From positions 22,134,001 to 22,198,000 of the forward strand of contig NW_024704749.1 of the NCBI RefSeq assembly GCF_018977255.1: a DNA stretch of 64,000 nt, written 5' to 3'. This DNA is from Callorhinchus milii. Lineage: Eukaryota. A model generated the notes under the pieces. That model was not told where the DNA came from, made no database searches, and was given only the letters and a program-made list of their open reading frames with translations. This document shows, in pieces, positions 22,199 to 64,000 of this stretch. Each line of letters opens with the position of its first letter. The first letter of the stretch is position 1. The position numbers were made by a program, and so were the translations under genes.

Positions 22199-23817
22199 TC
22201 ATCTCTTCCAGCTCTATTTGTACCACCAAAACCCTTCGCCCTTCCATATCTGTGTTTATTATTGTTATTATTATTATTATCTCACCTGGTCTTTGCCCTG
22301 TAAGTCCATTTTTTCTTAAAATATAAAATGGCACAGAATTATGGCAAATTCTTCAATTCCAGCTCAACTTCCAAACTGCAAAAAATAGTGCAGATGCTGG
22401 AAATCATCTTAAAAAGAAACAGGTCTTAGATCAGCTTAATCACGTTCAAGATGTTGCTGCCAGCTACCAGCAGTTCAGATCTCATTATCTACACAAGATA
22501 GAAATGTGTGACACATCTTTCCGTACTGTGCTTGCACCGAGCTGCTGACATGTACAAATATTCTAGATCCAACATTGCTTTGTTAGGCTCCACTGTCATT
22601 TTGTATTGGTAGGGTTTTGTATATTTATTTGGCAGCACATAGAACAAACACATTCAGGATTTATCATGTAGCTAAACTGATACGGCTACACTGAACCTGT
22701 TGTGTTGAATAGAGGTGATCTTCCACCCTCCAGTGGTAGCTGTCATTTCACCAGTTTGAAAGATTCACGGCTCCAGTTCATATTGTTTGGATGGTGAAAG
22801 AAAGCCCCAGAATTCTGTCACTCGAGATTCAGGCATCTCCTTGTCTGGATCTTAAACGTAGCTTTAAAATCGTCTTGGAACAGTGCCCACCTGCGCTGTG
22901 CCATCGAGTGTCCTCTTGCATGGCTGAGCTCTCATCCCTCTGCTTCACGCATGTGAAGTCCGCATTTTACAGCAGCTAAACTGACATTCAGCCTCACTGA
23001 ATAAAGTACATTACCATGGATGATTAGCCACTAATTGCTGCTAACTCCTGAATCCCTGTTGTTGTAGTTGTTATTGGCGCTGTGCAGAGATGTTTACCAT
23101 ATTCAGCCTTGTGAGCGCAAGGGGTTAAAGTACCTTTTGTACCCAACTGAACACGTCAGAGGCCAATAGATTCTCTGAGGACTGGAGGTTGTGGCTCTCA
23201 GGCTGTAGCTTTTGCAACCAATGTCATCTGTGAAGGCCGCTATCTAAATGCAAATTGGTGTTGTTCAACTGGGTTGGCGTCAGCCTGTGTGTGTATAACC
23301 AAGCGGGATAGAGTGGAGTAAACAAGCGGAGGGGAGCGATGACCTGTACAGCCCGACTGTAATCTGAGTATTTTTCAACAAGTACCATGTTACTTTTTTT
23401 TCTTACAGTTTCATGTGCCTGCGCTCCAATCTTCCTTTTTGAACCATCATTAGTCTTCAAGTAATTGCCCCTGGTAATTCCGGGTGATTATATCCTTAGA
23501 TCTCTGCAGTAGAGATTAACATGTGGATAAATTTGGCTTTTGGAAGGTCTGTGTTTAACAAGTCTTTTTTTTGTAATGTGGTGAGAAGCTAGAGCTAAAG
23601 CTTGTGTTGCATTAGTCACCAAGGTTGATAAACCGGTGAGGCTGCCTGCCACAGTTGGTAGCATTCTCACCTCTCAGTTGGAAGGTCATAGTTTAAGCCG
23701 CATGTCTTTGGGTCTTTGAACTGTTGTGTTTGTCCCGACAAAAGACACGGTCGCTACACTTTATAATAAACTCTGTGAAGCACTTTGAGACTTACTCCTG
23801 ACATGTAAGGCACTATG

Positions 23818-24175
23818 TGGAGTCCTGTAGCTCAGTGGTTAGAGCACTCGCTTTGCAAGCGAGAGACTTGAGTTCAATTCTCGGCAGAGGGCGAAACCTT
23901 GGGCAAGTTTCCCTACTCCACACGAATAATAATAATCCCTCCAAAAACCAAAAAACCAAAAACAATAATAAATTGGTCATTTTCAATCTGTGACTGTTTG
24001 TGGGACATTGCTGTGCGCAATTGGCTGCCGCGTTCGCCCACAAATATACAGTCAATTCACTTTACAGTGTGTTCTGTGAAGCAGTGTGTTCTGTGAAGGA
24101 TGTCCTCCCGACGTGAAAAGCGCTATATCAAATGCAAAGATTATTATTATTATATCAAATGCAAGGATTATTATG
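23818..24175 (+). mobile_element. DeuSINE, full length, with L2-type tail loop and terminal slippage duplication
   Basis: tggagtcctgtagctcagtggttagagc head; tail ggatgtcctcccgacgtgaaaagcgc; repeated tatcaaatgcaa.gattatt. Confidence 0.85.
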
Positions 24176-31398: not shown

Positions 31399-31820
31399 CG
31401 GAGTCCTGTAGCTCAGTGCTTAGAGCGCTCGTCTCGCAAGCGAGAGGACCTGGGTTTGATTCCCGGGCAGGGCGAAATGTTAGGCAAGTTTCCTTACTCC
31501 ACACACCTCTGTTTACCTAGCAGCAAATGGGAACCCTGTTGTTAGTCAATTGGCAGATCAGTTTCCAGAGGTAATAACGTCTTAAAAGAAACTTTTTTCA
31601 AAAAGAATAATTTGCTCACCCAATCCGTGATTGTTTGTGGGACAATGGGCTGCCAGGTTTTGTCAACAAAATGTACAGTCAATTCATTTTACAGTTATTA
31701 TTTATTATTATTAATGCAGTATATTCCGTGAAGGGCTTTGAGACATCTCAAAGACGCAAGGGTTAATATTCAAGTGCAAGTATAATTATTATTATATCAA
31801 GTGTAAGGATTATTATTATT
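31399..31820 (+). mobile_element. DeuSINE, full length, degenerate tail
   Basis: ggagtcctgtagctcagtgcttagagcgc head through gtaaggattattattatt. Confidence 0.85.
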
Positions 31821-49500: not shown

Positions 49501-50075
49501 ATTAACAAAAATCAAAACATTCCCTTGTGGAAAAATCCATGATGTGAGCCTCAGCAACAGTTTGTGGCAGAGAATTGCAGATTCCAGCCTCCCCTGTGCA
49601 TGCGTAGGGAGTAAAGTCAATTCAGTATTAATAAATATTAGTCTTTTTCATCCTTTGATTCTGGGCTTAAGGATTTGATGAGGAACTAATTCTCCACATT
49701 GCAAATGAAGCTCACGCCCATATTCCACAGGCCGCAACCCATCAATATTTAATAGAATAGAATTTGATATTAACTACTGCTCTCTGGGAAGGAAGCTGCT
49801 TCAGTTGTTTGCTGTGTGTGTAATGGCCACCGCGCCACAGTAGGCGCTGAGCTGCACACCGCTGTGCTCAGTGAATGGCGAATGAAGAAAGAGTAAATTA
49901 AACATACGGGGGTCTAATTTGCAGTATTTCTTAACGATCTTAAGGATCTCATAACAATTCTCATTGACTCGTAAGAAGCTCACCCTGGATTGTGTTCTTA
50001 GTCAATGTGCATCCAGTTTCCACCGGCCAAATTGTATTTTGTGGGCAATGGTCTGATTTAGAAATGTATTAATCA

Positions 50076-50445
50076 TAATAATAATAATCCTTGCATTTGA
50101 TAAAGCACCTTATCACTGTGTCTCAAAGTGCTTCACAGAATATACTGTAAAGTGTAGTGACTGTATATTTTGTGGGCGAAAGGCGGCAGCCAATCGTGCT
50201 CAGCAGCGTCCCACAAACAAACGTGGATTGAGTGACCAAATTATTATTCTATTTATTTATGTTGAAGGGATTATTAACCCCGGAAAAGCAATCTCCCAAT
50301 CGCCTAACAACCAGGTTCCTACTTACTGCTGGGTAAACACAGGCGTGTGGAGTAAGGAAACTTGCCCAACATTTCGCCCTGCCCGGGAATGGAACCCAGG
50401 TCCTCTCGCTTGCGGGGGTGCTCTAACCACTGAGCTACAGGACTT
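50076..50445 (-). mobile_element. DeuSINE, full length
   Basis: Reverse tail, core and tRNA head (ctctaaccactgagctacaggact). Confidence 0.88.
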
Positions 50446-50730: not shown

Positions 50731-50902
50731 GTAAGCAGTCAACCCGATGGGCTACTGTAAATACAGAGCAGAGGTGAGCCGGAGACCTTGTTAACAACAT
50801 GCATTTACAGAGCACACTTCACGTACGATAACATCTCGGGGCCCTCCACAAAGGTGGCTGAGCAAGGGAGGGGGCAACTGACCGTAGGCACGGTTGAAGA
50901 GG

Positions 50903-51066
50903 CTGGAAATTGAAATAAAAACAGAAGTCGCTGGGAACACGCAGTAGTCAGGCAGCATCTATGGAGCGAGGGAAATGAGTTAACGTTTCAAGTCGATGAC
51001 CTTTCGTCAGAACTGTTCTGATGAAAGGTCATTGACCTGAAACATTAACTAATTTTCCTCTCTCCA
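50903..51066. mobile_element. Palindromic Penelope-like element remnant with two inverted minimal hammerhead motifs, nested in an L2 fragment
   Basis: Arms 50962-51013 and 51015-51066 are near-perfect reverse complements; each arm carries CTGANGA...GAAAC. Interrupts a minus-strand L2 3' fragment (50790-50902 / 51067-51145). Confidence 0.7.
50978..51014 (-). ncRNA. Minimal type I hammerhead ribozyme motif (intact core)
   Basis: Minus strand reads AGUU-CUGACGA-A-AGGUC-AUC-GACUU-GAAA-CG-UU-AACU: stem I AGUU/AACU, stem II AGGUC/GACUU, palindromic ACGU stem III, GUU cleavage triplet. Confidence 0.65.
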
Positions 51067-51319
51067 AGGGTTGCTAAGCCTGGACTTAAAGACAGATAGG
51101 AGGTGGGGGGGTGAAATGGGTAGAGGCAGAGAGTTTCAGAGGCACAGTAGCTCCTGGGTCAGAAAGTTCCACCCCACGCTAGAACTTGAACTCGTATTCC
51201 AGGCAGACGCTCCAGTGACCTGTAGCTCAGCAGTGTGTTCTCCCCAGGGTTGGCTGGGTTTCAGACTCTGTTACATGAGCAACATGCGTGAGCTGAAGCT
51301 GTCACTTTTCTCCTTCTAG

Positions 51320-51987: not shown

Positions 51988-52318
51988 GGAGCCCTGTAGC
52001 ACAGGGGTTAGAGCACTCGCCTTGCAAGCAAGAGCACCTGGGTTTGATTCCCGGTCAGGGCGAAATGTTGGGCAACTTTCCTTACGCCTCGATTGGCAGT
52101 TCGTTTTTCCGGGGGTAATAATCCCTTCAAAATAAATAAATAAATAATTTGGTCACCCAATCCACGACTGTTTGTGGGGACGCTGCTGTGCGCAATTAGC
52201 TGCCGCGTTTCGTCCACAAAATATTACAGTCAATTCACTTTACAGCATATCCTGTGAAGCGTTTTGAGACGTCTCGAAGTCGTGATAAGCTGCTTTATCG
52301 AATGCAAGGATTATTATT
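51988..52318 (+). mobile_element. DeuSINE, near full length
   Basis: tRNA head, core and tail; ends ~55 nt upstream of the last coding exon acceptor. Confidence 0.85.
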
Positions 52319-52372
52319 GTTGATGGGATATATCTGTGGCCCCCGAACCATTCAGGATGTTGTTCCCAACAG

Positions 52373-63742: not shown

Positions 63743-64000
63743 CTGCAACAGCACAGCATCCATCACCTACACAGCATCAGCTCACTCACCCCACTCATCC
63801 CCTCATATCCCTGCCCCAGCAATACAGCCTCGCGTTTATATGAGATTCCAGTCTCAGCGACCTTTCCTCATCGGACTCATCAGGACACTGAAGATTAATG
63901 ATCTGAGGATTAGACCTTGCTACATTTATTTATATTTATATTTATATCAAAACTTCTGCCATTTGACGGAAGAACTATATCCTCTCACAATAATAATTCT

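Follow-up and report, generated by a model that had tools for sequence, protein, structure and literature searches.

Hammerhead ribozymes occur in vertebrate introns as the amniote motifs HH9 and HH10, which are canonical in form and ultraconserved. A smaller form, the min-HHR, was described by Cervera and De la Pena (2014) in the pseudo-LTRs of metazoan Penelope-like elements (PMC4209133). Counted by eye from Fig. S3 of that report, the published examples number 56, and in 41 of them helix III lacks a loop; among these loopless forms, 40 have a palindrome at positions 15.2-16.2 and 15 read C-G-U-U. The first base of helix II is G in 51 of the 56 examples, A in 3, and U in 2, and the G10.1-C11.1 pair belongs to the >80% consensus without being obligatory, G10.1 being missing in 5 of the 56. 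The motifs reported there are mostly solitary, with opposite-strand pairs lying ~100-700 bp apart in Schistosoma mansoni. Min-HHRs are expected to fold poorly as monomers, and in the in vitro assays of that report monomers were uncleaved and dimers were cleaved weakly (PMC4209133); dimer cleavage is also covered in a review (PMC6765202).

The shape of the insertions has been described as well. Craig et al. (2021) reported that an inverted, 5'-truncated copy adjoining the 5' end, together with a 30-40-bp tail at one end, is common for these elements (PMC8557442), while Arkhipova et al. (2013) described head-to-head inverted repeats with palindromes at the junctions, read as products of self-priming, and target duplications of 8-10 bp or none (PMC3846280). 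According to Schostak et al. (2008), the most frequent form of Penelope is one with inverted terminal repeats that vary in size. For the anole element Poseidon PAc, Frangieh et al. (2024) placed the hammerhead cut at +26 and the start of reverse transcription 85-92 nt downstream of it, at +111-118; the template is mainly RNA that has not been cut, and cleavage requires the protein of the element (PMC11167929). Non-LTR retrozymes, which are small, non-coding, hammerhead-bearing repeats related to Penelope-like elements, form head-to-tail tandems that can dimerize and circularize, and are also reported from a chondrichthyan genome (PMC7229834; bioRxiv 2026.07.22.740005).

Here we describe a 164-bp head-to-head duplication found in a 64-kb stretch of elephant shark DNA, the whole of which is called the window below. 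This duplication is probably the 3' stub, dead on arrival, of a Penelope-like retroelement, the new DNA copy of which folded back during insertion.

Host Gene and Insertion Site

The gene in the window is DAB2IP of the elephant shark Callorhinchus milii and lies on the plus strand. One of its exons matched UniRef protein P0116 with 100% identity and coverage, the top shark and ray matches reaching 69%, and C2, RasGAP, and DAB2P_C domains were detected by Pfam in ORFs of the window. The insertion interrupts an old LINE relic within a DAB2IP intron, the splice junction of which is consistent with P0116, a 100% match on another DAB2IP exon. The features of the site, in window positions, are the following.

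50731..51319, plus strand: DAB2IP intron of 589 nt, with GT at 50731 and AG at 51319
50783..50902, minus strand: 3' part of the interrupted LINE relic, from the LINE alignment; we take the relic to be L2-like
50900..50902, plus strand, and again 51067-51069: possible weak 3-bp target-site duplication, AGG, the longest exact flanking repeat at most 5 nt from the unit ends
50903..51066, minus strand: whole insertion of 164 bp, in which a forward 3' stub is joined head to head to an inverted partial copy, seen as a single gap against five of six LINE ends; its ends are good to ~2 nt
51067..51152, minus strand: 5' part of the interrupted LINE relic, from the LINE alignment

The flanks of the 164-bp unit align with consecutive parts of LINE 3' ends found elsewhere in the window. 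In a multiple alignment, five of the six related window LINE 3' ends bridge the unit as one gap of ~165 nt, the sixth being aligned on one side only. The target duplication amounts to 3 bp at most, and the LINE alignment is compatible equally with 3 bp or none. A sequence-only reading of this DNA had placed the unit in an L2 fragment of a 589-nt intron; both the insertion and the GT-AG intron hold, while the L2-like label is our own presumption from a translated motif, Pfam having assigned no family to the LINE-relic ORFs of the window.

The tRNA-like heads of a repeated SINE-like element were recognized by Rfam at 23825-23887, 31403-31474, and 51991-52062, and copies of this element at ~50070-50445 and 51990-52320 are mutually inverted across the 589-nt intron and both flanking exons. 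Of the 24 sequencing runs listed, 4, all from a single study, contained a share of 0.66-0.83 of the words in an exon-containing stretch of 821 bp. Two other organisms showed small shares of these words, and no RNA run was listed as containing them.

Palindrome and Hammerhead Motifs

The greater part of the unit is a palindrome, the sole long palindrome with a short loop within the 64-kb window. Its parts are the following.

50962..51066, strand not applicable: palindrome of 105 bp with two 52-nt arms and its center at 51014, from an inverted-repeat search and fold statistics
50903..51014, minus strand: forward copy of 112 nt, comprising the hammerhead motif and then 79 nt to the unit end, the putative pLTR 3' end of a Penelope-like element, from the descriptor, the arm comparison, and the geometry relative to the published anole element (PMC11167929)
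50903..50961, minus strand: one-sided, tail-like extension of 59 nt outside the palindrome; the arm match stops at 50962/51066 and the LINE match resumes at ~50902
50978..51014, minus strand: intact minimal type I hammerhead motif, with core 51010-51004, extra A 51003, helix II 51002-50990, GAAA 50989-50986, palindromic tetramer ACGU, and predicted cut 50982/50981, from the descriptor and folding
51015..51049, plus strand: mirror hammerhead motif on the sense strand of the gene, with core 51018-51024, helix I of 3 bp, tetramer ACAU (A at 51044), and predicted cut 51046/51047, from the descriptor and folding

The two arms (50962-51013 and 51015-51066) are separated by a 1-nt spacer and are 87% complementary, matching at 45 of 52 positions. 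The palindrome folds at -66 kcal/mol, with z = -12 (plus strand) and z = -14 (minus strand), and 0 of 200 shuffles were equally stable. The palindrome that the sequence-only reading had called near-perfect is thus real, though the adjective is slightly generous for arms that differ at 7 of 52 positions. The extension outside it places AATAAA on the sense strand of the gene (50914-50919, plus strand), and its minus strand (50903-50925) is a pyrimidine tract ending in CAG directly at the unit end.

Both arms carry a CUGANGA core, GAAA, a UH cut site, and an extra unpaired A between positions 9 and 10.1. On the minus strand C3 lies at 51010, helix I has 4 bp and helix II has 5 bp, including one G.U; on the plus strand C3 lies at 51018, helix I has 3 bp and helix II has 5 bp. 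The 5' end of each motif is at the palindrome center, so that the arms stand head to head. The palindrome at 15.2-16.2 is kept on the minus arm (ACGU) and lost on the plus arm (ACAU). At 10.1-11.1 both arms have A-U instead of the usual G-C, a departure that the earlier reading had left unflagged and that we file, on its sequence, as a minority min-HHR variant.

We searched with a min-HHR descriptor that called for the core, one extra base, helix II of 4-8 bp, GAAA-N-N-U-H, and helix I of at least 3 bp. Its two matches in the window are the two arms, which represent one duplicated motif and not independent occurrences, and it had no match on either strand of 6.4 Mb of order-3 Markov sequence. 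The other core-like motifs of the window (13 of 15) fail the descriptor, among them one at 63883 (minus strand) that resembles a hammerhead. The claim of two inverted minimal type I hammerhead motifs, one per arm, is thereby confirmed. A scan with the Rfam hammerhead models, by comparison, gave no hammerhead match at the gathering score, nor at E <= 10. Those models describe canonical forms with a full helix III. The amniote HH9 and HH10 share with this locus a hammerhead motif in a vertebrate intron, but they are canonical and conserved, whereas the motif here is minimal, has no Rfam match, lies in what appears to be a mobile-element stub, and is predicted to be masked.

The plus-arm helix II (51026-51038, plus strand) is also an exact pair of inverted nuclear-receptor half-sites with one base between them, presumably of the IR-1 type, and is the sole exact instance in the window. 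This pair probably arises incidentally from a stem of 5 bp that carries a loop of 3 nt.

The closest match to these motifs is the min-HHR of Penelope-like elements, as the sequence-only reading had proposed. The core, the extra base after A9, the loopless palindromic helix III, and the UH all fit the published consensus, as do the type I form, the short helix I, and the C-G-U-U cut context of the minus arm (PMC4209133). Opposite-strand pairs are reported in S. mansoni as well, but the cores here are 7 nt apart as against ~100-700 bp there. The A10.1-U11.1 pair differs from the published motifs, which usually have G-C and start helix II with A in 3 of 56 cases, and cartilaginous fish are absent among those 56 examples (PMC4209133).

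Searches for Related Sequences

None of 56 window ORFs (from 59 listed, at least 110 aa) matched a reverse transcriptase or GIY-YIG family in Pfam, nor would such an ORF be expected in a stub of 164 bp. Stops interrupt the reading frame that crosses the motif, and this frame has no protein relative. The translated unit had no match at E <= 1 among 2 candidate proteins and matched 0 of 234 fetched proteins. Its sole match in 1.84 billion representatives was rejected as an artefact: a repetitive protein of 4202 aa was matched in nine stretches, none of them above 6.1 bits.

At the nucleotide level, blastn and nhmmer found no second copy of the unit within the 64-kb window. A 16-nt match to the unit 3' end at 22389-22404 (E = 7.9) is either a tiny fragment of the family or chance. 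Pattern scans in viral contigs, metagenome contigs, and prokaryote genomes, together with blastn in plasmids, gave 0 copies; these collections hold no vertebrate genomes and so are uninformative on copy number. An abundant repeat of sharks and rays has a similar hammerhead-plus-tail layout and serves as a lead only. A search of the supplement of PMC11167929 gave no match, and neither this locus nor a hammerhead family of Callorhinchus was the subject of any paper met in literature searches, which stood apart from the repeat libraries (Repbase, Dfam) and from the supplementary tables of bioRxiv 2026.07.22.740005, where the family may be listed.

Arm Differences and Predicted Folding

The seven arm differences include a G-to-A change at 51044, opposite 50984, and the observation in the sequence-only reading that this change breaks ACGU was correct. 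Four of the seven fall at CpG sites of the minus arm (three transitions and one transversion), the minus arm having four CpGs and the plus arm 0. Two of the three CpG transitions are at positions that are free to vary (N7 and loop II), and another arm difference weakens helix II of the minus arm. By chance all four CpG-site differences would fall on one arm in ~1 of 8 cases, with which a bias is compatible, and it would take a family consensus to fix the ancestral base at each difference. Since the G-to-A change is one of the four CpG-site differences, its sequence context favors CpG decay over selection as its source. The arm differences as a whole show the pattern of neutral decay, and selection is unneeded to explain them.

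In a modeled dimer the G-to-A change costs two of the four helix III pairs, with the fold at +3.4 versus -2.2 kcal/mol, and because of this loss it would matter in an unmasked tandem. At this locus, each transcript strand has one hammerhead, so that no cis dimer is possible, and in the pre-mRNA the complementary arm is transcribed before the hammerhead arm. Constrained folding of the full unit placed the hammerhead fold 37.6 (plus) and 39.0 (minus) kcal/mol above the free ensemble, values that are secondary-structure estimates only; the masking of the ribozyme by the long hairpin, which the earlier reading had supposed, is thus predicted on both strands. In single arms the hammerhead was disfavored by 4.4 and 4.8 kcal/mol, and single arms alone are predicted not to fold as hammerheads. 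Given the lack of a cis dimer partner and a hairpin that outcompetes the ribozyme fold by ~38 kcal/mol, the models make cleavage of the pre-mRNA unlikely, with or without the G-to-A change.

Origin of the Insertion

The history that we infer from the shape of the insertion begins with a reverse transcriptase of the element that would have started near the RNA 3' end, copied 112 nt of uncut template through the hammerhead, and stopped at the 5' strand of helix I. The new DNA end would then have folded back, primed its own synthesis, and recopied 52 nt, and the product would have been joined into the old LINE relic in the DAB2IP intron with a duplication of at most 3 bp. The arms would have diverged thereafter by their seven differences, four of them at CpG sites, and in the present state transcripts of the locus are predicted to form a long hairpin with one hammerhead only and to undergo no self-cleavage. 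At this one locus the fold-back point is position 51014, on the edge of helix I and 4 nt ahead of the hammerhead core.

This layout resembles the described insertions of endonuclease-bearing Penelope-like elements in its head-to-head inverted repeat, the adjacent inverted copy being 5'-truncated, and in its junction palindrome and its one-sided extension (PMC8557442, PMC3846280); its target duplication is of at most 3 bp, where 8-10 bp or none is described (PMC3846280). It differs from them in that no ORF is left, the unit measures 164 bp, and the extension is 59 nt rather than the described 30-40-bp tail. As compared by geometry and not by sequence, the hammerhead also sits near the 3' end much as in Poseidon PAc, with the predicted cut 79 nt from the unit end as against 85-92 nt (PMC11167929). 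A copy running through the ribozyme is what an uncut template would give, and uncut RNA is the main template in Poseidon and presumably was the template here; the PAc ORF, by contrast, starts in stem II, where the motif frame of our unit has stops and no protein relative. Non-LTR retrozymes share the small, non-coding, hammerhead-bearing, and Penelope-related character of the unit, but theirs are head-to-tail tandems, a hallmark absent here in that no direct repeat was found in the unit, which has one head-to-head opposite-strand pair (PMC7229834; bioRxiv 2026.07.22.740005). Because the layout matches the described insertion product of endonuclease-bearing Penelope-like elements, a dead 3' stub is likely, rather than a new fold-back family, and the locus is likely another example of a kind whose pattern is already described.

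The sequence-only reading had instead proposed a non-autonomous fold-back element, that is, a mini-element moved as a whole palindromic unit by a Penelope-like element acting in trans, its hairpin silencing the ribozyme. The unit is indeed a clean insertion, and cis-acting pLTR sequences can drive integration in trans (PMC3846280). The arms, however, do not bound the unit, which extends 59 nt further on one side, a clear target-site duplication was not found, a second copy is absent from the 64 kb, and described elements give the same shape one insertion at a time (PMC8557442, PMC3846280), so that a distinct element of this kind is not borne out and we regard it as improbable. Still less probable is its extension to a cartilaginous-fish family of self-masking fold-back ribozyme mini-elements in which fold-back falls exactly on the hammerhead 5' edge (4 nt ahead of the core in our unit), the palindromic unit itself is mobilized again, and intronic sense arms are selectively disabled. 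A similar hairpin could arise from a DNA-transposon foldback or MITE, or by inverted duplication at the site, the motif then only resembling a hammerhead and having no tie to Penelope-like elements. Such an origin would agree with the absence of an Rfam hammerhead match, with the absence of an ORF link in the window ORFs and the translated unit, and with single arms that do not adopt the hammerhead fold; but poor monomer folding is expected of min-HHRs (PMC4209133), the terminal inverted repeats that are a hallmark of MITEs and foldback elements are absent at the unit ends, the descriptor found nothing in simulated sequence, and the core, extra base, palindrome, and helices are mutually consistent, all of which leaves this origin with hardly any probability.

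Two further proposals concern the fate of the unit within DAB2IP. Selection against pre-mRNA cutting, an addition to the stub interpretation that the sequence-only reading had offered beside CpG decay, would have disabled the sense-strand arm through the G-to-A change. In its favor, the change breaks the dimer palindrome at the modeled cost given above, the palindrome is kept in all but one of the loopless published examples (PMC4209133), and Xenopus introns are depleted of tandem retrozymes (bioRxiv 2026.07.22.740005). Such selection has little to act on, however, because the sense-strand motif is masked and without a cis dimer partner, and in vitro a min-HHR is cut weakly as a dimer and stays uncut as a monomer (PMC4209133). 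The change is moreover a CpG transition like two others of the plus arm at unconstrained positions, so that of the two proposals CpG decay fits better and selection is very improbable. The host could also have co-opted the hairpin for DAB2IP in a microRNA-like, editing, or splicing role, which would suit its high stability in the pre-mRNA and its place in the intron, at 231 nt from the donor and 253 nt from the acceptor site. On the other side, Rfam microRNA matches are far under their gathering scores, two arm motifs were not found in the elephant shark genome supplement (PMC3964593), and the arm differences resemble neutral decay, and we give co-option next to no weight. The matches to microRNA and 23S-methyl models in Rfam were rejected as generic hairpin scores under threshold.

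Implications

A probable dead Penelope-like 3' stub at a single locus is of little weight in itself, and what it adds is that the minimal hammerheads of such elements gain an example from a holocephalan, no earlier example from a cartilaginous fish having been found in the literature examined. If fold-back points were found to cluster at the hammerhead 5' edge genome-wide, this would tie the fold of the ribozyme to the unexplained inverted structures of these elements. In addition, a genome-wide comparison of how fast sense and antisense intronic copies lose the dimer palindrome would directly address whether host RNA is ever cut by these weak ribozymes.
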